Origin: Desulfatiglandales bacterium
GTDB taxonomy: Bacteria > Desulfobacterota > DSM-4660 > Desulfatiglandales > Desulfatiglandaceae
DNA length: 64,000 nt
Direction: 5' to 3'
Assembly: GCA_963662465.1 (NCBI GenBank)
Contig: OY759599.1
Coordinates: 256,001-320,000, forward strand
Below the pieces are notes generated by a model. It ran no database searches. It saw only the letters and a list, made by a program, of their open reading frames with translations, and was not told the origin of the DNA. The first letter of the stretch is position 1; every line of letters begins with the position of its first letter. Position numbers and translations under genes: made by a program. This document shows, one piece after another, positions 24,723 through 39,056 of the stretch.

Positions 24723-25742
24723 CTATAGACTGTCCAACCAGGCCATCAAATCCCCCTCATTTTCATAATGGAGTAATTCATCTATCTTGGAATCGTCCGT
24801 CAGGGCCGATTGCATGTGCCTCATGAACTGCCTTTGAATGTGGCGCCGTCGATCCAGGTCCAAATGCAGATAGATCGAAGTGGACTGGATGTTGTCATGC
24901 CCCAGATGATTCTTGATATCCGTGATGGGGTCACCGTTGTGGAGCATATCAACTGCTCGCGAGTGCCGGAATGAATGAACGGGATTGATATGTTTCAGAC
25001 GTTTTGGAGGGAGGGCCTTTTGGAGATATTTCCTGCAAATCCGGTAGATTCCATGGCGAGTGAATGACTCTCCCTTTTGATTGATAAAGAGCCGGTTTTC
25101 AAACATGGGCTTTGGGGATATCCGGTATTGTCGAATGTACAACTGAAGCAGGTCACAGGTTTTTGACTCAAGCTTTATGAGTCGAAACCGATTGCCCTTT
25201 CCCAGAATACTGAGGGTTTTCCGGTTGGGGTTAAAATAGTCGATATTCAACTCTGCAATTTCACTGGCCCTGGCTCCGGAATCGTAGAGCAGATGGAGCA
25301 CGGTGTAATCCCTGAACCCCTCTTTTCGTTTAAAATCAACCGCCTGAAACACCCGAAGTATTTCATCCTGGTAAAGAAATCCGATAAGACTCTTCTGCTC
25401 CCGTTTCTGGGGAATATTGAGGATAGCGGTTGCGGCATCCTGTTGATCCGGATGCATAAAGCGAATCATTTTGGCAAAGGATTTGAGTGCCGCAAGACGA
25501 TGATTCCGGGTTTTGGCCCCATTTTTCCTGTCACTTTGAAGATTTTCAAGGAACGAGACGAGAAGTTCCGTTTTAATATGTTCCACACGAAGCGATTTGA
25601 CCTTGATGTTGTAAAACGATGCCGCAAAGGGAAGAAAAATCCTGAAAGCATCCCGATAGGCCTTTATGGTCTGGTAACTGAGCCCCCTGATGGAAGTCAG
25701 GTATTGATCAAAGAACTGATGCACCAGGGGTGAAAGTTTCAT
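24723..25742 (-). CDS. Tyrosine recombinase (RitC-like, outer element)
   Basis: YDSGARASE, GKGNR, HSFRHS and LGHDNIQSTSIY motifs. Confidence 0.92.
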   Translation of the reverse strand: MKLSPLVHQFFDQYLTSIRGLSYQTIKAYRDAFRIFLPFAASFYNIKVKSLRVEHIKTELLVSFLENLQSDRKNGAKTRNHRLAALKSFAKMIRFMHPDQQDAATAILNIPQKREQKSLIGFLYQDEILRVFQAVDFKRKEGFRDYTVLHLLYDSGARASEIAELNIDYFNPNRKTLSILGKGNRFRLIKLESKTCDLLQLYIRQYRISPKPMFENRLFINQKGESFTRHGIYRICRKYLQKALPPKRLKHINPVHSFRHSRAVDMLHNGDPITDIKNHLGHDNIQSTSIYLHLDLDRRRHIQRQFMRHMQSALTDDSKIDELLHYENEGDLMAWLDSL

Positions 25743-25937
25743 TTGTTTACTCTCTGCCAAAGACAAAAATCAACGAGATCTTTGCGATTCATGGCATCTG
25801 AAACCCGGAGATAAACACTGGTGCAAATGTAATCCGTGTGACCCAGATAGGCCGCCAGTATGGGTAAAGCGTTTTGGGCGGATTCACCTGATTTCCGGAT
25901 TCTGTTGAGGGTGTTCACGGCAAAAGAATGGCGCAGC
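25739..25937 (-). pseudogene. C-terminal part of the interrupted outer RitB-like recombinase
   Basis: LRHSFAVNTL...LAAYLGH..TSVYL; joins 29421-30205 in frame once the insertion is removed. Confidence 0.9.
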
Positions 25938-26097
25938 AAATCCAAACGTTTGGATTTGCTGCGTTATCCAAACCTAAATAAAATCCAAACCTTTTCTTAA
26001 ATAACCTGATATTTAAGTATTTTTATCGGAAAAGGTTTGGATTTTATTGCATAACGTATGACCTTTTTATCAAACAAATGAACAGGAGGTCATACGA

Positions 26098-27336
26098 ATG
26101 AATGTACAAAATCTGCGGGATAATTATCCCAAACTCATTTCCTACATGGAAACCAACGGTTACTCAAAAACTTACGTTGACAGTTTTAAAAGGGAGATTA
26201 AAAAAACTCTGGCGTCTGAGGATTCAGAGGAATGGTCATGTTATAAAGATGTATATTTGGGATACACCAAAAAATCATATTCTCCTAACACTCTTCGCGA
26301 TAAACGGACTGTCATTGGAGCCATTGAGCAGTTTGATGTTCATGACAGATACCCGAATGGAAGGTGCAGGCATCAACTCTTCGAAAGGGGTTCTTATCCC
26401 TTGTTGTCACCGGAATTCAAATCCGTCATCGATCTTTACCATGAAGTTGAAAAGAAACGTGGCAAGAAAAAATCTGCTACCGTTTATACCGAATCCCATA
26501 ATGCATCCACATTTTTCTTATCCCTTCAGCAAAAAGGAATTAACGGCCTGGGAAAGACTACAGAAGAAGCCGTGCTTTCAATATTTATGTCCCCGGATGA
26601 AACCCTGCTCAAGAGCTGTTCTTACAAAAAAAACATTGCTGCGGTATTGAAGGCGTGTATCCCTTATCATCCAGAAACATGTCCTCAAATTTTAGCCTTC
26701 CTTCCCGCTTTAAGGGAAACTCGAAAAAATATTCAGTACCTTACATCGAAGGAAATCCAGAAAGTTAAGGGCGTACTGGCTGATGGTGAAAATCTTCTTA
26801 CGCTCCGTGACAAAGCAATTGGAATGCTTGCACTTTACACAGGCGTGCGTGGCTGTGATATTGCAGGATTGAAACTTGACGATATTGACTGGAACAGGGA
26901 TTTTATTGATATCAAACAGCAGAAAACAGCAATCCCTCTTGAACTTCCTTTAACAGCAGTTGTCGGAAATGCCATTTATGACTATCTGACGTCAGAGCGC
27001 CCACGCACAGAAAGCAGATATATTTTTGTTTCCCAGCTTAAACCATATGAACAACTGAAAAACAAAAGCATTGGCAACGTGGCAGCTCTGATCATGAAAG
27101 CAGCAGGTATCCGGCAGTTAAAAGGCGATCGGAAAGGATTTCATATCTTCCGCCATCACTTTGCCACAGAACTTTTGGGGAACGGAGTTCCTCAGCCTGT
27201 TATCAGCAGGACACTTGGTCACACTTCACCAGATTCTCTTGAATCATACCTAAGAGCAGATTTCCCGCATTTGAAGGAATGTGCCATCAGCATAGAAGGT
27301 GTTCCTGTACCAAAGGAGGTGTTTTACCATGAATAA
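26098..27336 (+). CDS. Tyrosine recombinase (RitA-like)
   Basis: YTGVRGCDI, QQKT, HIFRHHFA and LGHTSPDSLESY motifs. Confidence 0.93.
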   Translation: MNVQNLRDNYPKLISYMETNGYSKTYVDSFKREIKKTLASEDSEEWSCYKDVYLGYTKKSYSPNTLRDKRTVIGAIEQFDVHDRYPNGRCRHQLFERGSYPLLSPEFKSVIDLYHEVEKKRGKKKSATVYTESHNASTFFLSLQQKGINGLGKTTEEAVLSIFMSPDETLLKSCSYKKNIAAVLKACIPYHPETCPQILAFLPALRETRKNIQYLTSKEIQKVKGVLADGENLLTLRDKAIGMLALYTGVRGCDIAGLKLDDIDWNRDFIDIKQQKTAIPLELPLTAVVGNAIYDYLTSERPRTESRYIFVSQLKPYEQLKNKSIGNVAALIMKAAGIRQLKGDRKGFHIFRHHFATELLGNGVPQPVISRTLGHTSPDSLESYLRADFPHLKECAISIEGVPVPKEVFYHE

Positions 27337-28303
27337 ATTCACTTCTTTTCTTGCGCCGCTCATGCAGGCATATGTTTTCTATCAAAAAGCATCCGGACGT
27401 TGGAGTGAAGCTTCTTCTTATGGACCAAACCTCATCCTGTTTGACCGATACTGCAAGAAGCAACATCCGGAAGCTGCACTTCTATCTCAGGAAATGGTGA
27501 ATGGATGGTGCCATCAGCGCGACACAGAATCCAACAATTCGTGCAGATCAAGAATCAATGTTGTTGTAAGTTTTATACGATACTTGAGAAAGCGCGGAAA
27601 AACAGATGTCATGGAGCCTGAAATTCCAAGGAAAGAGCGATGCACATATATTCCCCATTCTTTTACAGGTGTTGAGCTGGAAAATTTTTTCCATGCTTGT
27701 GATAGCCTGCCTTCAGTATCCCACACTCCCGAACAGCGATCACGGAAAATAACTATTCCTGTGTTCTTCCGTTTTCTTTACAGTAGTGGAATACGAACTT
27801 ATGAGGCAAGAATGCTGAGGGTTAAGGACGTCGACTTGTGCAATGGGATTATGAATATCCGTTATTCCAAGGGGAGTGCTCAGCACTACGTAGTGCTACA
27901 TGACTCCATGAATAAACTTTTAAAAATATATGACGAAGCTATACGGAAGCAGTACCCTCACAGAACTTATTTTTTCCCTGCAAAAGGTAACACTTTCCAT
28001 AAAAGGAAATGGGTACAGACAAATTTTCGGGAATTGTGGGATAAATATAATAGCTCTCATGCTACTGCATATGAGCTCAGGCACCATTATGCCATAAAAA
28101 ACATCAACCGCTGGACAGATGAAGGCTTTGGGTTTGATGCGAAACTGCTCTATCTCAGCAAAAGCATGGGACACAGCACACTGGAAAGCACAAAATATTA
28201 TTATTCCCTTGTTCCCGGAATGGCTGACATCTTGGAAGAAAAAACAGGAATGGATTTCGAAAGCATTGTGCCGGAGGTGGATTATGAAGAAAGCGACGAA
28301 TGA
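27329..28303 (+). CDS. Tyrosine recombinase (RitB-like)
   Basis: YSSGIRTYE, SKG, YELRHHYA and MGHSTLESTKYY motifs. Confidence 0.93.
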   Translation: MNKFTSFLAPLMQAYVFYQKASGRWSEASSYGPNLILFDRYCKKQHPEAALLSQEMVNGWCHQRDTESNNSCRSRINVVVSFIRYLRKRGKTDVMEPEIPRKERCTYIPHSFTGVELENFFHACDSLPSVSHTPEQRSRKITIPVFFRFLYSSGIRTYEARMLRVKDVDLCNGIMNIRYSKGSAQHYVVLHDSMNKLLKIYDEAIRKQYPHRTYFFPAKGNTFHKRKWVQTNFRELWDKYNSSHATAYELRHHYAIKNINRWTDEGFGFDAKLLYLSKSMGHSTLESTKYYYSLVPGMADILEEKTGMDFESIVPEVDYEESDE

Positions 28304-29333
28304 GTCTGTTGTAATCGCACGCCATATCAATGCTTTTTTGAATGAATATGTTCCTTCCCAGAAAAGTCACAGCAGCCACACATTGAAATCCTATCAGTAT
28401 GCTCTGGCTTTATATATCGGTTTTTTGGAGGCCAAAAAAGGAATAAGTACAGAAAGCTTGTGTGGTGGATGTTTCAGAAGAATAATAATCGAGGAATGGC
28501 TGCAATGGCTGATAGAAGTGCGTTGTTGCAGGCCGGAAACCTGTAACAACCGGTTAGCATCCTTAAGAGCATTCCTAAAATACATGGCCAGTAGGGAAGT
28601 CCGCCTGCTGTACCTTTCCGAGGAGGCAACAAGAATTCCACGGAAAAAGGAAATACGCAAAAGAGTAAAAGGGATGAGCAAAAAAGCAGTACGGGTATTG
28701 TTATCGGTTCCGGATTTATCCAGAAAAACAGGGCGAAGGGATCTATCACTTATGATTGTCATATACAGCACTGCCGCCAGAATAGATGAAATACTGTCTT
28801 TAAAAACAGAACAACTTCATTTGGACGTGGAAAAGCCGAATATCACCATCATTGGAAAGGGAAGCAAAATAAGAACCCTGTATCTTCTACCTAAGGCTGT
28901 TGCACATTTAAAAAAATATCTGGGAGAATTTCATGGTGATACTCCAGATCCAGAAGCTTATGTTTTTTATTCAAGGAACACCGGATCACATGGGAAAATG
29001 AGTCAGACTGCAGTAAACAAGCAACTGAAAAAACATGCCAGAGCCGCCCATGAAATATGTGATGAGGTACCACGAGATCTTCATGCGCATCAACTGAGAC
29101 ATGCAAAGGCCTCCCACTGGCTGGAAGATGGCATGAATATCGTACAAATTTCATTTCTTTTAGGGCATGAGCAGTTACAGACAACGATGATATATATGGA
29201 CATTACCCTAGAGCAGGAATTGAAAGCCCTTGCAACACTTGAAGATGAAAACGACAAGAAGGTATCAAAGAAATGGAAAAATCAAAAAGATGGTCTGGCG
29301 GATTTCTGTGGCGTTAAGTCAATGAAGAAGTAA
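28284..29333 (+). CDS. Tyrosine recombinase (RitC-like)
   Basis: YSTAARIDE, GKGSK, HQLRHAKA and LGHEQLQTTMIY motifs. Confidence 0.93.
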   Translation: MKKATNESVVIARHINAFLNEYVPSQKSHSSHTLKSYQYALALYIGFLEAKKGISTESLCGGCFRRIIIEEWLQWLIEVRCCRPETCNNRLASLRAFLKYMASREVRLLYLSEEATRIPRKKEIRKRVKGMSKKAVRVLLSVPDLSRKTGRRDLSLMIVIYSTAARIDEILSLKTEQLHLDVEKPNITIIGKGSKIRTLYLLPKAVAHLKKYLGEFHGDTPDPEAYVFYSRNTGSHGKMSQTAVNKQLKKHARAAHEICDEVPRDLHAHQLRHAKASHWLEDGMNIVQISFLLGHEQLQTTMIYMDITLEQELKALATLEDENDKKVSKKWKNQKDGLADFCGVKSMKK

Positions 29334-29420
29334 AAAATAAAATCCAAACTTTTTTGTATCGAATTCCTTAAATATCAGACATCTTTAAAAAAGGTTTGGA
29401 TTTTATTTAGGTTTGGATAA

Positions 29421-30205
29421 CGCAGCGAATGAGGTGTGGGTCCGTTGAAGTTCACATTGCCCAAAACTTTTCTGGGTTGCTTTAAGCCAGTGTCACTTAC
29501 CGCCTTATGAAACGCGGCCCTGACAGTAGTGTCACTCAAACTCCGCTCTTTTCTGCCGGCAAACAGAAAGGGATTCTTATCGTTTGGGCGAAGACTTTGG
29601 CGGACAGAGAGATAGTTTTCGATCTCTGCCACAACTTTTTTGGGAATCGGAATGATTCTGTCTTTGCCGAACTTGGTCCTTTCAATATAGAGGGTGGCAT
29701 CATCCCGGCGGTAGTTGCACCGCAAAAGTTTGATGGGTTCAGAGATCCTTGTTCCGCACCGGGCCATGACCAGCACCACCATATAAATAGCCAGGTCAGT
29801 CAAAAAACATCCGTTGGTCGTTCGAATGTTTTTGGAGACCGACTTCAACAGCAGGTCGATTTGATCGGGAGAGAAAACAAAGGGTACAACGACGTTTTTT
29901 TTAAGCCTCGGAACATCCTGTAAGGGATTATGGTCCACATAACCACGACCGGCAAGAAAATGGAAGAAGCCCCGAATCGAGGAAAAAATAGCGTTGATAC
30001 TCCGCGTTTCCTGGGTGAGTGCTGCTCTCATTTCAAGGAAAAAATCAGGCGTAAAAGAATGCCGGTCAGCTTCTGTTTTCCGAAGATAATCATCAAAAGT
30101 CAGAAGATGTGAGAGAACAGACCCCTTTTTATAGCCGAGACTTTTACGACGATACCGAAGGTAATCCTCCATCTCAGAGGCAAGAAAGCTTTTAAAGGGT
30201 CTCAT
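29421..30205 (-). pseudogene. N-terminal part of the outer RitB-like recombinase, interrupted at PHSLR|H
   Basis: CGTRISE and TKFGKDRIIP motifs; ends ...PTPHSLR and then reads into the inner TIR. Confidence 0.9.
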
Positions 30206-31139
30206 TGAGCAAAACCTTTCTCATCAGTTCGATGTGGATGTGGAGATACCGCTGAGTGCACCGAATGTTCCGATGCCCCAGCATTTCCTTGATTTCATAA
30301 ATGGAACGACCCACAATCAGTAAACCCTGTGCATAGCTGTGTCTGAGCCAATAGGCACTCGAAGACAGTCCGGCTTCTCTCATGGCGTTTGAGATATGAA
30401 AACCAACCAAATTGGGCCTCATTGGCCTATAGGGCTTGTCGCAGGTCAAAAATAGTTCTCTGCAATCGCTTTCAGACCGGGCCTTGTGGACATAAGCCGC
30501 AATGGCTTTGAGGGTCTTATGGGGAATGGGCAGCACAACGGGATTGCCATTTTTCCTGCTGTTTATGGTGATCTCTCCTTCTTGAAACGATATGTCATCC
30601 AGGGTGATGCGGCTGATCTCATCGGGTCTCAAGCCCAACGAGTAGGCCAGAACCGTCATGGCATAGGTTCGAATCTGTGTTGGCGTCTCCAGGCTGAGGC
30701 TTTCGAAGAGTGTCTTGATTTCATTCGGCCGGAGAAATTTTGGCGGTCTTAACTGGTTGAACACCCGGGGACTCACCACCCCATAAGACAGGTCTTTTCT
30801 GGTAATCTTTTCGTCAAACAGATAGCTTAAAAATCTTCTCAGCTTACCTCGATAGATATTTCGGGTCTGGGTGGAAAAGGATTTGAGAAAATCGGCCTGA
30901 AAAGCATCAATATGTTCGAGCTTCAAACCGGAAAGTGTAATTTGGTGCTGTTCAAGATAGAGGTGAAATGAAGCCAGGACCCGTCTTGTGGCTTTGGCAT
31001 TCTTACTGGAAATGACCTGACGTTCACGGATACAAAAGAGATGCTTCTCGTAAATATCGGGGAGGCGAATCTGGTGGTTTTGAACCGGGTGGGGCGCCAT
31101 CCGGTCTTTTCCATACCGTCTGATATCATCTGTTCCCAT
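30192..31139 (-). CDS. Tyrosine recombinase (RitA-like, outer; N-terminus possibly shortened)
   Basis: YSLGLRPDE, YWLRHSYA and LGHRNIRCTQRY motifs. Confidence 0.88.
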   Translation of the reverse strand: MGTDDIRRYGKDRMAPHPVQNHQIRLPDIYEKHLFCIRERQVISSKNAKATRRVLASFHLYLEQHQITLSGLKLEHIDAFQADFLKSFSTQTRNIYRGKLRRFLSYLFDEKITRKDLSYGVVSPRVFNQLRPPKFLRPNEIKTLFESLSLETPTQIRTYAMTVLAYSLGLRPDEISRITLDDISFQEGEITINSRKNGNPVVLPIPHKTLKAIAAYVHKARSESDCRELFLTCDKPYRPMRPNLVGFHISNAMREAGLSSSAYWLRHSYAQGLLIVGRSIYEIKEMLGHRNIRCTQRYLHIHIELMRKVLLNETL

Positions 31140-31140
31140 T

Positions 31141-31527
31141 TCAGATCTCCCTAATAGATTGCTGGATAAGGTTCTCTATTTTCAACCTTCCATGGTTTTG
31201 CCGGTGCTTTTTGGGGGCCGATTCTTTGGGTAAATCGAGTACCTGGAAAAGGCTTCCGTCAAATGCAATCAAATCCGTTTTTATCAGAGAGTCCCGGGCT
31301 TCAATGTATTCATCCACGGTGATTTTCAGAAACTTACAGATCCTGTCATAGGAGTAATAGGAAAGGCCGTTTCGATCGGAAGCCAAAACAAGAAAGAAGT
31401 ATAAAAGGATTTCCTGAGGCCTTAAAGCGTCCAGAAAACCATCCCGAAGGAACTTGTGAGGAATAAAACTGAAGCCGCCATTAATGCGTCTGACCCGATC
31501 CGGGTCCAGTATCTTTTTCTTGATCAT
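31141..31527 (-). CDS. Small HTH-like protein carried by the element
   Basis: LLYFFLVLASDRNGLSYYSYDRICKFL resembles the winged-HTH N-termini of replication-initiator-like proteins; GGAG RBS. Confidence 0.6.
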   Translation of the reverse strand: MIKKKILDPDRVRRINGGFSFIPHKFLRDGFLDALRPQEILLYFFLVLASDRNGLSYYSYDRICKFLKITVDEYIEARDSLIKTDLIAFDGSLFQVLDLPKESAPKKHRQNHGRLKIENLIQQSIREI

Positions 31528-31661
31528 GATTGACTCCTTTCCGGGTCTGATTTGGGGAAATCAAGATGCATGAGTTCATCAAGCTGGCTGAACAACCATC
31601 GACAAACCGCTTTTTGGTATCTTTCATGCTGATTCCTCCCCGTGGAGCCAATCTACGACCT

Positions 31662-32273
31662 TTAAAGGGGTGGGTCAGTCCCCGTATGGTGTTGGAAGCG
31701 GTTATTCCTGATTTTTTCTGATCCAGGGTGGGTACAAAAGCCCAAAGGAGGCGGCAGAATCTGTAGAAATGGGGCTGCATATTGCCGGAGTTCTGGAAGA
31801 ACATATGACACGCAAAGCGTCTGGCGAAAGGACGACAAGGTCGGCTCACAGGCTGAAAACATAGAAGGCATAAGTTCGATCAACATCTTTAATGCTGATC
31901 GGATGGGAAGGATTCTCCGTCTAACCCAGCGAAGGGCACCCGGGAGAAAAATATCAACGCGAATCCTTTCAACTGCCTTCTCTTGAGATGGGGCTTTTTC
32001 AACTTCTTCGATGATGTTTTCGACTTGTTTCAATTCCCCCGGTAGCCTTGCCGATAAACAGTCCGGGAGAAAGCTGAATGTTTCATGCCCCATTTTGCAG
32101 TACCATCTGGCGATTTTTGTTCCTTCCGGATACTTTCTACTGTAGGTGCCGTTCTTACCAAAACCACAGCCACCTTCAGGATGAATCGGGCATTTTTCAA
32201 GCTTTACGTCCTTCCAGGCTTCGCTTTGAACGTATTCCTCAGCGGATAAATCCGTTGCAAACCTCAGTTGCAT
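31662..32273 (-). CDS. Zn-ribbon protein (DUF6431-like) carried by the element
   Basis: CPIH..C..NGTYSRK...RWYC..HETFSFLPDCL. Confidence 0.6.
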   Translation of the reverse strand: MQLRFATDLSAEEYVQSEAWKDVKLEKCPIHPEGGCGFGKNGTYSRKYPEGTKIARWYCKMGHETFSFLPDCLSARLPGELKQVENIIEEVEKAPSQEKAVERIRVDIFLPGALRWVRRRILPIRSALKMLIELMPSMFSACEPTLSSFRQTLCVSYVLPELRQYAAPFLQILPPPLGFCTHPGSEKIRNNRFQHHTGTDPPL

Positions 32274-32318
32274 AACAAAGCCCTTGCCTCAAATGGAAAT
32301 TAATGAGAGCATCCGGTC

Positions 32319-32720
32319 ATGGTCAAAATCGGTCGAAATGCACCATGTCCCTGTGGCAGTGGTAAAAAGTATAAGAAATGCTGCTTGTCGGCACAACCAG
32401 AGAAATGGCCCGTCAAAGAGCAGCGGTTCATACCGGTCTACACGGAACTTGATCAACTGTCGAACAGCGTCGTTGATCTCATAAAACAGAAAAAACTCGA
32501 TGAAGCTGAAATCATATCACGGAAATTTCTTGATGAATACCCCGACCAAGTCGATGGCTTTAACCGGCTGGCGATGGTTTATGAGGCCCGTGGTGAAAGA
32601 AGAAAGGCCGCGGAGTACTTCAGAAAAGCCCACCGTTTCGCTATGTCAAATGAGGGTTTCGACCAAGACATTGTTGATTGGTATTTATCGGAGGCGAAAC
32701 GGTTGGAATCTCAAAAATAA
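32319..32720 (+). CDS. SEC-C motif plus TPR protein
   Basis: [20 protein letters not shown] followed by TPR-like helices. Confidence 0.85.
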
Positions 32721-32965
32721 GATGGAATGAAAGGAATTAAATGGATTCCTTATAAAAGGAATCTGGGAATCAAAAGGAAGGAATCAAATCTCGCAACATA
32801 ACGGACCCCGCAACATAAATTGAGAGTATCCAAAAAAATCGGCACCATCATAACCTTGTGATACCCCTTATATGCCCCCAGCTACCGTCATGCTTGCTTT
32901 TCCCTTTCCAGCGTAGCATAAGAAATCACCTGTGAAGGATTTCAAGCTGGGACTACCTCATTTTG

Positions 32966-33760
32966 ACCGGATAGGTCGGAGGCCTTACGGCCTCCTTCCC
33001 TACACGGCTCAAGCCTCCGGTAAGGTTTCCCTGGTGGGGATTCCCGCAGATTTGCATCTGCTTCACGTTACAAGCCGGCTGTCAGAATAGCCAAAGGCAC
33101 ACGGGGCGCACCAGCCTCAAGGGCCGTCATTCGCCCGTTTCACTGGCTGCTTTCCCCGCTTTCATCTGATTCCTCCGGTGTTCACGTGATCGGACACCGC
33201 GATGAACGTCTGCCTCCTTACGGAGCCGGGAATGTTTCACCCGGTATCCGAACCATTACAGCCCGGCATTCGCTTTTTTCAGTCTCCTACTCCGGCCCGC
33301 CAACAGCATGCCTTACGGTTAGCCTGCCCCCAAAAGGGGCGACGGGACCGGGTTTCCATGTTCCACATAGTTGATCCAATGGATGACTTAGGTGCGCCCT
33401 CTACGCCGGTGGTACAACAGTTCCGTGCAGGCAGTTGACAGACCTGCAACCTGACCACATCCGCTGACACTGGGCAGCGGCATAAGACCTGTTAATCCTC
33501 GTAGGCCCTTCGCTTGTGATCGACGCTTAAAGACATTCAGATACCTTCACCATATCATCCGACCCTGGCCCTTAACCGGGGAGGATTCCCGGAGGGGTTC
33601 TCCTGTCGCCATTCAAACCCAATTCGGTACGTTGTCCGCAGGGCTTCACACCCCGTCATCAGCGCAACGGCAGCATGCCTGCGTAGGGTCCGGTAGGAAC
33701 ATACCGGGTACTACATGTAACTACATGAATACACTCAAACTATGCGACTTCGTGTCGCAA
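32966..33760 (-). ncRNA. ORF-less group II intron (relative of the 35583-38147 intron), D5 partly deleted
   Basis: 5' end TTGCGACACGAAGTCGC; shares GCAGCCAGTGAAACGGGCGAATGACGG (RT start region) with the other intron; 3' end GAGCCGTG|TAGGG..GGAGGCCGTAAGGCCTCC..CCTATCCGGT. Confidence 0.8.
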
Positions 33761-33845
33761 GCCAACGTTAAGCTCACCAGCGCTTCCTCCGGCCCCCGCT
33801 AGGACCGCAGGACTATCAGGCGTCTGGTGCAGCGCTTGGTTCGCG
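33760..33845 (-). other. Integron attC site
   Basis: Minus strand CGCGAAC-CAAGC-GCTGCAC...GTGAGC-TTAAC-GTTGGC; L'' carries the extra G. Confidence 0.85.
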
Positions 33846-34096
33846 ATTCCAGCGGCTAATTGGAATAACGCAGATTTTGGCCCTAAAAACGGAAATATAG
33901 CCCCAAAAAGGAGCAATATTTAGAAACAAACTCTTATATTTTTAGTCAGTTAGCTTGGCCCGACCCCATTTGCACCCCCAATGCTACGGTTCCTTAAAGG
34001 CATGTTTTTGGGGGCGAAAAAAAGTTTTCAAGGTCCAAAACCACCCTATTCCTATCACTAAAACACTGAATGCATTGTTGTATTCTCGGTCCGACC

Positions 34097-35290
34097 CTAG
34101 CCCGCATTGCCTTTGGACCCGGCAAGAACATCAGTCAGCTTTCCCAACCCCCATTCCAAGCTGTACTTGTTGCCGTGCCGCTCCCAGGCCTTGAGACATA
34201 CCAAAAAGACGGTGACCGCCGCCAACCCCAGGACAAATGAGGGAATGGCGCCCATCAAGTCGAATTCCGGATGCCGCCCAGTAAAGAGATACATGATCCA
34301 TAGCGGCAGGGCGATTAGGGGGTAATGTATAAAATAAACGGTTAATGAATGTCTGCTCATGCGCTTAAACCAGGCAGCAAATACCCCGGTTCCGGGAACA
34401 GGGTCTCTTCCATCGTAGTAATAGTACAACAAGGTAAACACTATCAGGGCTTGCCCCACCTGTAGGTAAACCATGGTGTTGGAATCGGGAAAGAGACTGA
34501 AAGGCGAGATGTAATCTGTTATGTGAGACGATTCGGCCCGCAAAAGGCTGGCATAACCGGCGGCAAACGAAAGAAAGATCAGAACAAACCCGATAACCAA
34601 CAGAAAAGGGAGATCTCGTTTCATCTGATTGGCTACGATACGCCGTCCGATCACTAAACCGAACAGGGGAAAGACAAGCCAGGGAAAAACGGGGAAAAAT
34701 CCCGTTAAAAAAAAGCCCCTTATCATTTTAGAAAACCGCCAACTGGGTTCATATTCGCCTGCAGGCTCCACCAGGATGCCTGGAAGGTATTCGGAAATGA
34801 CGGGTGTTTGAATGAATTGTCCTCCCCAGTCGGTCGCAAAATCCACAAAGCCCCGAAGCCAAGGCGACATGAAGACAATTGCTGCGGCCAGAAGGAGAAG
34901 CAGCCATGAAGGTAAAAACCGGCAGAAGTGAAGGACAATGTAGGCTGAACCGATCAGGGTCAAAACGTCCCAGTTCCACACGTTTTTCGGTCCCCAGGCG
35001 AGAACGTTCATCAGGAGTCCGGCAGTAAACACGTATGCGCCGCGAAGAAAGGCCTTCTTCATCAGGTTGTCTTCACCCATCCCTTTTCTTCGTTCGCTGG
35101 AAACCGCCTGACTCACCCCTACCAGCAATAGAAACCAGACCGCACCGAAATCGCCAAGGGCATGGTCCATAATGAAATAAAGCGGATTTTCCGCAGCCTG
35201 AGCATTTCCGTACTCAAGCATATAGTGGCAGATGACCATTCCCGTTAGGGAAAAACCTCTCAGTACATCAATGGATACAATACGCTGCAT
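34097..35290 (-). CDS. Cassette gene: DUF1624/HGSNAT-like membrane protein
   Basis: RIVSIDVLRG, DVLTLIG, FPVFPW and SLTVYFIH motifs; multi-TM. Confidence 0.8.
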   Translation of the reverse strand: MQRIVSIDVLRGFSLTGMVICHYMLEYGNAQAAENPLYFIMDHALGDFGAVWFLLLVGVSQAVSSERRKGMGEDNLMKKAFLRGAYVFTAGLLMNVLAWGPKNVWNWDVLTLIGSAYIVLHFCRFLPSWLLLLLAAAIVFMSPWLRGFVDFATDWGGQFIQTPVISEYLPGILVEPAGEYEPSWRFSKMIRGFFLTGFFPVFPWLVFPLFGLVIGRRIVANQMKRDLPFLLVIGFVLIFLSFAAGYASLLRAESSHITDYISPFSLFPDSNTMVYLQVGQALIVFTLLYYYYDGRDPVPGTGVFAAWFKRMSRHSLTVYFIHYPLIALPLWIMYLFTGRHPEFDLMGAIPSFVLGLAAVTVFLVCLKAWERHGNKYSLEWGLGKLTDVLAGSKGNAG

Positions 35291-35655
35291 GGCTCCTCAT
35301 TTTCAATACACTGAAATTATTCGAATCATCCTTACAGATATGCGTTTCCGGAAAATATAGAAAAAATCCGATCGGGTCCATAAGCATTTTTGAGCTCTGT
35401 CAACAGATGAAAATCGCACAGAATTTCTTTCAGTCAATCATCGTCAAACGATTGGATCTTTTGCCTCATTGGCAGAAAACGACATTCAGATGTTTTGGGT
35501 TCCGAAAAAACACATTGGCTCCAATGAAAAAAACGCAAGCAATTAGATCCAATCACGACTTGCGCGGCCTTTTCCGTTATGGGTCGAGTAGCCAGGGGAT
35601 GTTGCCATCCCCCAGCCCTCTAAGAACCGTGCGTGCGCCGTTAAACGCACACGGC

Positions 35656-37513
35656 TCAAGCATTCCAAAGGCAAGCCCTTTCGGGGCTACCCGGTTGTGA
35701 CGTTTTATGCTCTTTACGCCTGTCTGCCTTCTGCTGACTGCGTTGGGCATATTGTTTCCTGAAATATTGTTCATATTTCGGATCGAAGGGGTTCGCATCC
35801 CCTCGAATTTTGACATGGCGTTTTATCTTGACGTCGTAAGCCTTCTCAAGTTCAATTCTGGCGGATTTCGCATAGCCGTCCTTGATCACCGCTGAAAAGG
35901 ACCACGGGCGAGATCCTTTTGACCAGTATTTATCCACCAGCCAACTCTTACTCTTGCCCGAATGTTTCCTCCTCATCCATTGCCAAATATAGCTGTAGAT
36001 ACGGTGATCTACAAGCCCGAAAGTTCTACCGGAAACCACATGCCTGTGGTAATTGGCCCACCCCCTGATTTTGGGATTGAGTACTTTAATCAGAATGTCG
36101 GCTCTTGATGCCGCATGCTTTCGGATTGTTTTCCGGATATTGCCTAAAAAGGCTTTCACGTTTTTGCGAGAGGGCTTTATCAAAAGTTTTCCTCCGTATT
36201 TGCGTGAACTTTGTCCGAGAAAATCAAATCCTTCTTCTATCCTTGTGATCAACGTCTTTTCCGCTGAAAGCGAAAGACCTCTTCGCTCCATAAATGCTTC
36301 AATTTCCAGCTTGATCTCATTTAGCATCTCTCTGGAATTCCCGGTGATGATAAAATCATCAGCGTAGCGGATTACGTTTATCTTGGACCGTATATTTCCC
36401 TGAATTCTTATCGGGGCGGTGCTTTTGGCTGCCGCTTCCAGACCATCCAGGACCATATTAGCCAATGTTGGAGAGATAATCCCGCCTTATGCAAAGAAAG
36501 TAATTATGCAAAGTAAACCGTAAAAGCCATAATAATTCAAGAGATTCTTGTTGATTTGCTTAGCATAATCTCCACTTATGGTGAATGAGAAAAAGTTCAA
36601 AAAATCATTAGACAAAACAAAGGAGCTATTTTTATCCAAAACAAACGAAGAATGCTGCATCATTTACTTGGCTTTCAAGTCTGAAGTAGTCGTGATATTA
36701 TGCAAAGTAAATTCAGTGCATATGCTTGAAATATTGCACCTTAACTGATTTACTTTGCATAATCGTTAACTTTGCATAAGGCGGGTTATGCAAAGCTTTG
36801 CATAACCCGCCTTGCGGGGTTCCTCTGTATGTCGGATAGAGCTTGCCTCCTTCTACATACCCGGCTTTCAGGCATTTCTGAAGCGTCCGTTTATCCATCG
36901 GGATATTTTCGAGTATCCATTGATGGCTGATTTCATCAAAACAGGCCTTTATATCTCCCTCCAGAATCCATACGGGTGAGTAGCGCTTGGCCAGAGAAAT
37001 AAAACACTGACCGATGGCATTCGCACATCCCCGATAGGGTCTGAACCCGTAAGAGTTCGGATCGGCGGTGGTTTCCGCCACCGGATCAAGCGCCAATTTG
37101 TACAATGCCTGCATGGCTCTGTCCTTCATTGTGGGAATGCCCAATGGGCGTTTCTTGCCGTTTTTCTTGGGTATGTAAATTCGGCGCAGCGGTTTGGGTC
37201 GGTAGGCTCTTCGGCGCAGGTCGTTTACCGCTTGCATTTTGTCAATGTGGGTGGACCATATGACTTTATCCACTCCCGGTGTGCGTTTACCCCGGTTGGA
37301 AGTAACGCGCTTGATAGCCAACAACTTGGCATAAAACGAATGAGTCAAAAGCCACTGTATCACCTTGACTTTTCCCCATCGCTTTTCCTTCACAGCTTTT
37401 GCGATACGCACCTGCAGTCTTCTAACATGCTCCCCGGCGGTTTTCCAGTTTATGGATTTCCACCAGTTTGTTCCGTCCAAAGGTGCACCAGTCGCCAGAA
37501 CGGCCACCGTCAT
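35656..37513 (-). pseudogene. Group II intron reverse transcriptase/maturase, split at GTPQGG|IISP
   Basis: KRPLGIPT..DRAMQ, SYGFRP, GDIKACFD, GTPQGG | IISPTLAN, RYADDF, FDFLG and LNPKIRGWANY; no obvious HNH domain. Confidence 0.93.
36487..36779. mobile_element. 293-bp non-autonomous RIT-like mini-element
   Basis: Ends TTATGCAAAG-N7-TTATGCAAAGTAAA and TTTACTTTGCATAA-N7-CTTTGCATAA; no recombinase-sized ORF. Confidence 0.85.
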
Positions 37514-38147
37514 TCGCCCGTTTCACTGGCTGCTTTCCCCTGTTTGAAGATTCTACAGATTATCTCGCAATGGAACACCGGTCAGAAGTCTGCTCTCTTT
37601 CGAGCCGGATCATGTCGGTGATTACCATCAATCCGTATCCCCATCATTACAACGAGGCATTCGCTTTTTCTGACATCCTTTACCCGCAACCCCATGGGCT
37701 CACCTTGCGGTTCGCTTTCCCCGTGGGGAGGGTTAACGGGCTTACCATGTTCCGCGTAAGTACCCGAGCAGGTTAGGTTCCGCCCTTACGCCGGTGGCAC
37801 GACATCTGCGACGGAGGAGTTCGCAGCCTCCGTTCCTGGCCACGTACCTTTTGGTCCAAGCCTTTCAGCATCTTAGGCTTGTTCTCGTGACGACGCTGCA
37901 GTGATTCACATGTGTTAACCGTACTGCTCAATTCTAGCTCCCTCACCGCATGATGCTTGCAGAGTTGAGGTCCCCTCGCGGTTCCCTCTCCCGGAAAATT
38001 CCGCGGGCTTCATTGTCCCGAGAGCTTCACATCCCCGGATTACTCCGGACGCATGTCCCGGTAGAATACCTGTTGCAGAAAACAGGGTTTTGTTGTATGG
38101 TTTATATTGATATATAAAACAGATACTTACGCGACATCACGTCGCAC

Positions 38148-38229
38148 GCGAACGATAAGCTCACCAGCGCCTTGCACCGGCCCCCGCAAGGACCGCAGAA
38201 CTTTCAGGCGTCTGGTGCAGCGTTTTGTT
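38148..38229 (-). other. Integron attC site with introns at both ends
   Basis: Minus strand AAC-AAAAC-GCTGCAC...GTGAGC-TTATC-GTTCGC; R'' is restored to TGCCAAC once 38230-39056 is removed. Confidence 0.88.
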
Positions 38230-39056
38230 GTGTGCCGGGCACGGCACGTGTTCTTAAGGGTGCGCGCAATGTACCATGCTTCCGATATTTTACGCAAGTC
38301 CCAGACCCAGCCAGGTAGTGGCGAAGGGTGTAGCGGTATCACAACCGGGTACCCGGTAACGGGCCTGGAGAGGCAGTGGCCTTGCCGCGGCAGGGCACCG
38401 CAAACGCACGGGGCGACGAACAGAAATCGAGTGAGGCGGGTCTGGTGGGACGAGTTCGCAACACAGAACAAAGTCCTCTAACTACTATAGGCCAGGCACG
38501 TTGTCGGCGCTCGTGTGCGGAAAGACACGTGTTTACCCCGGGAGGCCCGTTGCGTCTCGTAGGGAGCTGCAACTGAAATCTACCGGAATATAAGGGAAAA
38601 CCGGTAAAACAAAACCCTGGCGTCAGGAACATTTCGAGTCAGAGCCCTGACGAGCCCGGCCTATTGGTCGGGAAACACAAACAAATGGACTCGACAGATT
38701 GCGGAAACTACGAGTGAGCGAACCGCAAGGGGAGCCCACCGCGTAACGGGAGTCAGCAGAGGGCATATTAAGCCGGAGAAACGAGCCCTGAATAAAGGGA
38801 GGCCTCACTCCGGTGAAGGCCCGGACTGTGCCACCTGCCGAATGGCAGGGGTAAATGGTTGTGTTTGTCAAAGAACGTGTACTTATTGGTCTAATGCAGC
38901 AGTAGCTGAAAGGTCGATAACGTCGCATTCTGGAAAACCCGGTAGGGCGGAACCTGTTTTATCCGTGCCTGCTCTGACCAGCCGAATCGCCGTATACGGA
39001 CCCGTATGTACGGTGGTGTGGGAGGGGGGAGCTGTGAGGCTCCTCCCTATCCCTAT
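38230..39056 (+). ncRNA. ORF-less group IIC intron in the attC bottom strand
   Basis: 5' end GTGTGCCGGGCACGGCAC; short D5 with CGC triad (CGCCGTATACGGACCCGTATGTACGGTG); D6 ends CCCTAT; no RT ORF. Confidence 0.88.

Follow-up and report, generated by a model that had tools for sequence, protein, structure and literature searches.

The window analyzed here is a stretch of 64,000 nucleotides from a Desulfatiglandales bacterium (GenBank assembly GCA_963662465.1, contig OY759599.1, positions 256,001 to 320,000 of the forward strand), and it contains two mobile elements that share one type of junction, as listed in Table 1. The first is a recombinase-in-trio (RIT) element, referred to as the inner RIT, which is inserted in the middle recombinase gene of another recombinase trio (the outer trio). 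The second is a gene-less element, referred to as the mini, which splits the reverse transcriptase (RT) gene of a group II intron. Both insertions are described as A-c1-palindrome-c2'-element-c3-B, where A and B are the flanks, c1 is the outer 6-bp core on the palindrome side, c2 is the inner, inverted core, and c3 is the core at the far end. The junction coordinates of the original prediction, made earlier for this DNA, are exact for both insertions. It had also claimed that the target is restored when only one core is kept, and this is the case: both target motifs rejoin exactly, giving GPTPHSLRHSFAV, the HxLRH motif of a tyrosine recombinase, for the inner RIT, and RGTPQGGIISPTLANMV of the group II intron RT for the mini.

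Table 1. Features of the two insertions and of their surroundings. Coordinates are those of the window, except for the last row.
Feature	Coordinates	Strand	Remarks
c1 of the inner RIT: outer 6-bp core, palindrome side (carried-core slot)	25932..25937		CGCAGC; not equal to the far core in the identical copy C1:7045576
Palindrome of the inner RIT, 20 bp, perfect	25938..25957		two back-to-back 10-bp recombinase-arm motifs AAATCCAAAC
c2 of the inner RIT: inner inverted core	25958..25963		GCTGCG; centre of the second complete crossover site (palindrome arm/core/element end); variable in relatives, independently of the target
Inner RIT element, 3457 bp	25964..29420	+	terminal inverted repeats identical over 32 bp; three motif copies per end
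c3 of the inner RIT: far core (target-derived slot)	29421..29426		CGCAGC; in related insertions c3 equals the empty allele
ritA-type tyrosine recombinase, 412 aa	26098..27336	+	PF00589; best reciprocal type match pHG1 RitA; catalytic motifs
ritB-type tyrosine recombinase, start inferred	27329..28303	+	PF00589; overlaps ritA by 8 bp
ritC-type tyrosine recombinase, start inferred	28284..29333	+	PF00589; overlaps ritB by 20 bp
c3 of the mini: far core	36481..36486		CCCGCC; GGCGGG on the RT coding strand, Gly-Gly
Mini-RIT, 293 bp, no gene	36487..36779		element ends match the full RITs L111 and L284
c2 of the mini: inner inverted core	36780..36785		GGCGGG; GGGGGT and GGAGGC in two sister copies
Palindrome of the mini, 20 bp, perfect	36786..36805		terminal motif TTATGCAAAG doubled
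c1 of the mini: outer core, palindrome side	36806..36811		CCCGCC; foreign in copies C1:3338795 and C1:3346638
Target gene, 5' part: middle recombinase of the outer trio	29427..30205	-	split at the S-L-R codons of HSLRH
Target gene, 3' part: middle recombinase of the outer trio	25739..25931	-
First recombinase of the outer trio, 315 aa	30192..31139	-
Third recombinase of the outer trio	24723..25766	-
Group II intron reverse transcriptase gene	35656..37513	-	split by the mini at the PQGG codons; PF13655, PF00078, PF08388
IS66-targeting RITs, G000 C1	1582172-1585616, 2491143-2494586, 4393491-4401673, 7140202-7143652, 5169549-5169985

In the inner RIT three tyrosine recombinase genes lie next to each other on one strand, in the order RitA-RitB-RitC; each has the PF00589 domain, and the catalytic motifs R...H-x-x-R...H/Y are found in all three proteins by a motif scan and in their C-terminal sequences. 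The A, B and C proteins of the pHG1 RIT match those of the inner RIT type for type, at 22-34% identity. Overlaps between RIT genes are given as 4-8 bp in PMC3414803, and with the inferred starts the A/B and B/C overlaps of the inner RIT are 8 bp and 20 bp. Its size of 3457 bp, and its ends, which are 83% identical over 95 bp, fit those of RITs (about 3.5 kb, with repeats of about 28-34 bp), and its mobility as a unit is seen from a 100% identical copy at C1:7045576, inside a different target gene. RitA has been described as having two core-binding domains and RitC an extra C-terminal helix (PMC8138268), and the RitA (412 aa) and RitC (349 aa) of the inner RIT are compatible with this when lengths are compared. 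Between the ends of the element there are only the three RIT-type recombinases, and not the gene set of SE/Tn554 (a large and an ordinary recombinase, Tfp and Srap/TnpC).

At each element end of both families the 10-bp motif is present at positions 1, 18 and about 73, and the palindrome adds two more copies, placed back to back. Each 6-bp core is thereby located between two inward-facing 10-bp motifs, which is the arrangement of a dif-like site, the dif layout being arm, 6 bp, arm (PMC3089051, Table I). Since every core is flanked by inward-facing motifs, the palindrome supplies two mirror-image crossover sites. The joint end-core-palindrome-core'-end', which had been predicted for the mobile intermediate, follows from this junction geometry. 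That the palindrome is the element's own end motif doubled is correct for the mini (TTATGCAAAG) but not for the inner RIT, where the half-palindrome AAATCCAAAC is the second motif (position 18) and matches the terminal motif TTATCCAAAC at 8/10 positions.

The two insertions had been considered unrelated, and this view cannot be kept: the terminal motifs TTATCCAAAC and TTATGCAAAG share 8/10 bases, the motif spacing is equal, and the autonomous kin of the mini, L111 and L284, encode RitA/B/C homologues, those of L111 being 29-37% identical to the proteins of the inner RIT. The ends of the mini are 77% identical to those of L111 and L284 over the first 89 bp, and these full RITs with mini-type ends also occur in intron RT genes, L284 being on a complete Bacillus plasmid. 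With its 293 bp the mini does not encode a recombinase trio; it is a non-autonomous RIT derivative, of which the genome has seven full copies and one partial copy, in both orientations. An autonomous partner was not found in the source genome, where the best candidate has 37% identity. Among 209 genomes of the class the exact palindrome of the mini is present in the source genome only; the palindrome of the inner RIT recurs in relatives that belong to several phyla. Other RIT families also have minis without genes, in L048 (4847-5296, 450 bp) and L121 (221 bp).

A third RIT family of the source genome (G000), located within IS66 transposase genes and 55-60% identical to RitA/B of pHG1, has a matching junction, and the archetypal RIT of pHG1 also bears the core/palindrome/core junction; this junction is therefore a general feature of RITs. 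In the IS66-targeting family the centre of the palindrome is asymmetric, and this asymmetry, which serves as an orientation marker, is retained across the copies. A relative on Priestia plasmids (L268, L269) has the palindrome of the inner RIT but targets the codons of LHELTHA, which we take to be an HExxH-like motif, so that the palindrome does not set the target.

For the comparison of junctions, 41 loci of the inner family, at least 78 metagenome loci (78 being listed from 124 stretches) and 45 loci of a viral collection were gathered together with plasmid records, the metagenome and viral loci being retrieved by a pattern of palindrome plus element end. In the scan of 169 loci, 123 gave 130 junctions, a set that still includes a false match in L030 and both ends of contigs with two palindromes. 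From these scans (42), the source genome (13) and plasmids (8), 63 complete insertions were curated. Left out were the two-palindrome contigs, L078 (a truncated two-palindrome contig), the false match in L030, elements with no palindrome, L022, which has an irregular core and was missed by the pattern, and L278/L287, where a 2.6-kb insert separates c2 and the element end. A degenerate junction pattern had matches in 10 of 151 genomes of the phylum, several of which are chance-like and few usable. The two-palindrome contigs may be assembler chimeras, and this is what could be said for an assembly artefact or a chance palindrome as the origin of the junction, to which we give virtually no probability. 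The palindromes of the inner RIT and the mini recur at three and seven places of the source genome and are also present in complete plasmids and chromosomes; the junction is found in the 123 loci mentioned above (most of them fetched by the palindrome pattern) and in the pHG1 archetype; and perfect palindromes of 32 bp and 36 bp are present at the two junctions of the window, when the longest palindrome in 30 dinucleotide-block shuffles of it is 20 bp. For the one-palindrome junction the artefact is refuted. A REP-like palindrome, GAGACAAGGCATGCCTTGTCTC, of 22-30 bp, is present at about 24 places in G000 (e.g. C1:753452) and is unrelated to the RIT junctions.

The original prediction also asked whether the palindrome is always flanked by inverted copies of the target core. 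This is not so, as c1 and c2 are equal in only 55/130 junctions and unequal in 75/130, and the palindrome itself is perfect in 87 and imperfect in 43. These counts also bear on the predicted replicated hairpin, and on a protelomerase-like linear intermediate that is cut at the centre of the palindrome. A palindromic joint and the junctions in which c1 equals c2 are as expected from such an intermediate, and hairpins have been suggested for RITs (PMC5737581). However, replication of a hairpin in each cycle would force c1 to equal c2 and the palindrome to be perfect, and the asymmetric palindrome centre of the IS66-targeting family would not persist across copies. A protelomerase would break and join at the axis of the palindrome, with symmetric arms, yet the breakpoints map to the cores. 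The per-cycle hairpin is thus largely refuted, and a replicated hairpin or a protelomerase-like intermediate is very improbable.

In the 63 complete insertions all three cores are equal in 16, only c1 and c3 are equal in 17, only c1 and c2 in 11, only c2 and c3 in two, and all cores differ in 17. In the source genome, one or more odd cores are present in five of the seven full minis, and the identical copy of the inner RIT at C1:7045576 has three different cores. Six insertions whose outer cores are unequal could be compared with an empty allele, namely two minis (C1:3338795, C1:3346638) and one IS66-targeting RIT (C1:1582171) of the source genome, L025 (compared with 10 empty paralogues in G209), L030, and L269 on a Priestia plasmid (compared with two empty plasmids). 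In all six c3 is the target core and c1 is foreign (one-sided binomial 0.016), and the empty RT copies have GGCGGG in 5/5. In both insertions where only c2 and c3 are equal, c3 is also the core of the empty allele. Empty alleles were not found for L023, C1:4989741 or the two outer-trio genes, and for C1:3216236 there are diverged paralogues only. The foreign cores look, as far as the sequences tell, like codons of other targets: in the HxLRH family 14/16 of them still encode (L/F)-R, the cores of the minis vary at the glycine wobble positions, and the rare cores GGCGGC and GGGGGT recur between the slots of sister copies. Most likely, the carried 6-bp centres are leftovers of earlier insertion sites and not a fixed address. 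The footprint rule of SE and Tn554 (PMC10214605), with two carried cores in place of one, is also followed in these six cases, so that RITs work alike in this respect, without being members of that group.

It had been proposed that the carried core is an address, and in its strict form, in which this core must match the target, the proposal is scarcely credible. Outer cores are equal in 33/63 insertions, and in a comparison of 27 insertions 14 have identical outer cores, when the mean in shuffled pairs is 0.72 and the maximum in 5000 shuffles is 5, so that a weaker form of the idea, with outer cores identical far above chance, does stand. But c1 and c3 differ in 30/63 insertions, with at least three mismatches in 16 and with 5/6 bases different in two; the mismatch counts form a spike at zero plus a background, with no gradient; and identical elements are found in different cores (C1:281964 and C1:7045576; L268 and L269). 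Clearly, as mismatches at up to 5/6 bases are tolerated, for example in L282, the strict address is refuted. The excess of exact identity has three candidate sources: c1 may be converted to the target core once the element is inserted, elements may hop among identical paralogues, or a matching core may be preferred. When c1 and c3 are unequal, positions 1 to 6 match in 25, 24, 13, 21, 12 and 8 of 30 pairs. A rule by which carried and target cores of IS66 targets share three of the first four bases was tried; it held in four cases, failed at L282 and was rejected. The target flanks resemble the element arms, being CATGA-core-NCAT by inspection in the HxLRH family, which suggests that the flanks could be recognized by protein.

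Both orientations of the element occur, as predicted: the left end is near the palindrome in 45 junctions and the right end in 51, and 34 have no assignment. For any given target the side of the palindrome is constant, and the element lies either way. In L259/L240, which hold one element from one sample, and in L233/L237, the element is flipped and c1 and c2 are swapped, and in the Priestia plasmid pair L268/L269 the identical element is flipped, with the donor core in c1 and c2. The asymmetric palindrome turns with the element in 4/5 IS66-targeting copies of the source genome, and likewise in the two-palindrome contigs L057, L073, L088 and L248. Most flips are accompanied by a core swap and a palindrome reversal, which points to the use of the second site rather than to inversion in place, and core swaps with a flip are what is predicted for a circle that can use either site. 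Inversion in place, as originally proposed, is accordingly not the source of most flips, but some of it is likely, because palindrome and element are untied in C1:7140208 and in one diverged family.

Taken together, it is probable, though far from certain, that RITs move as a circle with two mirror sites, by a strand-biased exchange on the flank-A side that is resolved by replication, the target core later being taken up through conversion or copy-out. The element would exit as a circle, the joint of which would hold the two mirror-image crossover sites (end-core-arm and arm-core'-end), and either site could recombine with a new target, giving both orientations and swapped carried cores. In the exchange, the strand cut on the side of flank A and the element end would be joined first; one or two matching bases may help this first joining but would not be required, and target choice would rest mainly on protein recognition of the flanks rather than on the carried core. 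In the surviving product the core next to the palindrome would be the carried one and that at the far end the target's, for which replication resolving a one-strand exchange would be the simplest cause. The target core would enter the element later, either by conversion of c1 to that core, which would account for the 33/63 insertions with equal c1 and c3, or by copy-out of c3 as in SE/Tn554. The unused inner site would permit an occasional inversion in place. Precedents for parts of this scheme are the 6-bp footprint of SE elements (PMC10214605), the 2-bp homology of IntDOT (PMC2034462) and the one-strand exchange of CTX (PMC3089051).

In a rather unlikely variant the circle again has two sites, but both strands are exchanged, in the way of IntDOT or Tn916, with a second exchange that is independent of homology, and the heteroduplex cores segregate or are repaired. 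For IntDOT the first exchange requires 2 bp of homology, and the second does without it (PMC2034462), which matches the position profile given above; repair would also explain the equality of c1 and c3, and inversion in place requires that a two-strand exchange be possible. However, segregation predicts that about half of the insertions are reversed, with the target core beside the palindrome, and this is seen in none of the six proven cases and in at most one unproven case (L022).

Still less likely is a folded single-strand circle like that of the CTX phage, in which one strand is copied out, the mirror sites pair to make an attachment site of hairpin form, and each hop turns the element round, the new c1 being the donor c2 and the new c2 the donor c3. 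The CTX attP is indeed built from two inverted dif-like sites (PMC3089051), the joint of the inner RIT, with its 32-bp identical ends, would form a perfect palindrome of 96 bp, the orientations are near 50:50, the swaps in L259/L240, L233/L237 and L268/L269 fit, and exonuclease-resistant RIT DNA without circle reads has been reported (PMC5737581). On the other hand, c1 and c2, which would be partners in the stem, differ in the 75 junctions counted above, some of them at 5/6 positions, and c2 should be the latest previous target, yet insertions in which only c1 and c3 are equal (17) far outnumber those in which only c2 and c3 are equal (two).

Several observations weigh against the strand-biased circle that we prefer. 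A circle has not been observed: no circle or inversion joint is listed for the four runs, all of which consist of contigs, and the circle-joint pattern had 0 matches in viral contigs, as had the pattern TCATGCCG. The sole end-core-palindrome-core'-end junction, in L092 (1157-1221, a 60-bp perfect palindrome beside an IS630-like gene), lies at a contig end; it is possibly a circle or tandem joint, or an artefact. There are only six empty-allele cases, one of which (AGCGGG) may be a point mutation, and L022, in which c2 and c3 are equal, c1 differs from them and an irregular extra base is present, may represent the reverse outcome. The association of palindrome and element orientation is absent in C1:7140208 and in the family of L258/L104 versus L264/L222. 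The conservation of core positions 1-2 is confounded by conserved target codons, the pairs of c2 and c3 have a similar profile (37, 31, 12, 27, 21 and 20 of 45), and in L282 c1 and c3 match at one position only. Related loci are not independent, so that the binomial values are only a guide, and many loci are short-read assemblies across repeats. A skip of positions 36480-36806 in the runs does not indicate excision, being explained by the empty RT paralogues.

Other configurations were also seen. Elements with two far-type flanks and no palindrome are present in L015, L027, L035, L047 and L284, and two palindrome-side flanks in L029, L042, L057, L064, L073, L085, L088, L123 and L248, the two-palindrome forms being found only in draft assemblies; both kinds are as expected from recombination between opposite copies. 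Palindromes without an adjoining element are present at L285:1331 (G361), with His-side target flanks on both sides, and at L286:1501 (G357), with one target flank and unrelated DNA, and the same two genomes also hold palindrome-less elements (L038 and L015). Recombination of the inner site directly with a second target would fit these lone palindromes and palindrome-less elements. In L278 and L287 (NZ_CP125297.1) the 2.6-kb insert is an integrase-plus-transposase segment, which fits exactly between the inner core and the end of the RIT. In the window, the outer trio (24723-31527), with its short first recombinase (315 aa) and an HTH_36 gene upstream, has no clear RIT ends: no palindrome of at least 14 bp and no clear inverted repeats were found there. 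Homologues are at C1:3491142 and C1:7044338. Pieces of group II introns, nested or in tandem, surround the RT gene (about 33005-38900), and at least 11 copies of the intron family are present in the genome, five of them with an empty PQGG site.

A literature search, covering texts other than supplements and Ricker 2013, gave no account of two sites, of a junction rule or of core inheritance. Palindromes of 20 bp and inversion are reportedly described in Ricker 2013 and in Ricker's thesis. RITs are not mentioned in bioRxiv 2024.07.17.603846. The inner RIT shares with the RITs of Cupriavidus metallidurans CH34 and pHG1 (ritABC; PMC3414803, PMC2864759) the overlapping A-B-C recombinase genes, the size of about 3.5 kb, the terminal inverted repeats and the insertion in conserved genes that belong to other mobile elements. 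In 2012 an inverted repeat of 28-29 bp, overlapped by a palindrome, was noted for the RIT as having no fit to known layouts of binding sites (PMC3414803), and, unlike the present account, the available portions of these two papers give no crossover site, second site or core rule.

Three known systems are similar in part. SE and Tn554 (PMC10214605) are also tyrosine recombinase transposons that bring 6 bp of the donor to one side and keep 6 bp of the target on the other, but they have one joint, one carried 6-mer and the genes IntA, Tfp, IntB and Srap or TnpABC, whereas in RITs the palindrome is flanked by two carried cores and insertion takes place in both orientations. CTnDOT, with its coupling sequences, and IntDOT (PMC2034462) likewise tolerate unequal crossover regions, homology mattering only next to the first cut, but a single integrase exchanges both strands at one attachment site. 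At dif, the CTX phage attP (PMC3089051) similarly has two inverted dif-like sites, exchanges one strand pair and leaves one site unused, but it relies on the host XerCD and on the folding of a single strand, has its sites spaced by about 90 bp, uses one orientation and has no recombinases of its own.

RITs are widespread, and in the available portions of PMC10214605 and PMC3414803 their transposition is neither reproduced nor explained, the former stating that it has not been reproduced so far. The junction rule fixes the position of the cut and accounts for the one-sided palindrome and for both orientations. The long palindromic joint predicted for the circle may be the reason that circle-junction reads were missed in the mobilome study, in which exonuclease-resistant RIT DNA was found and hairpins were proposed (PMC5737581). 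In a working assay the donor has to contain the palindrome together with the two carried cores, and the 293-bp mini defines the minimal cis unit. Of the original prediction the shape of the joint was right, and the hairpin and the fixed address were not; the junction rule makes the RIT mechanism directly testable. As a tentative idea, to which we give clearly less than even chances, RITs could carry a rewritable two-slot register of earlier targets, in which each hop would write the 6-bp core of the new target, the mirror site would swap the slots, and a matching slot would raise the chance of insertion, so that DNA acquired from its most recent hosts would in part readdress the element. Cleavage to one side of the cores could then release a single strand, cleavage to the other side could serve its integration, and the three recombinases could share out these tasks. 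If this is true, genomes could be read for the succession of past insertions.

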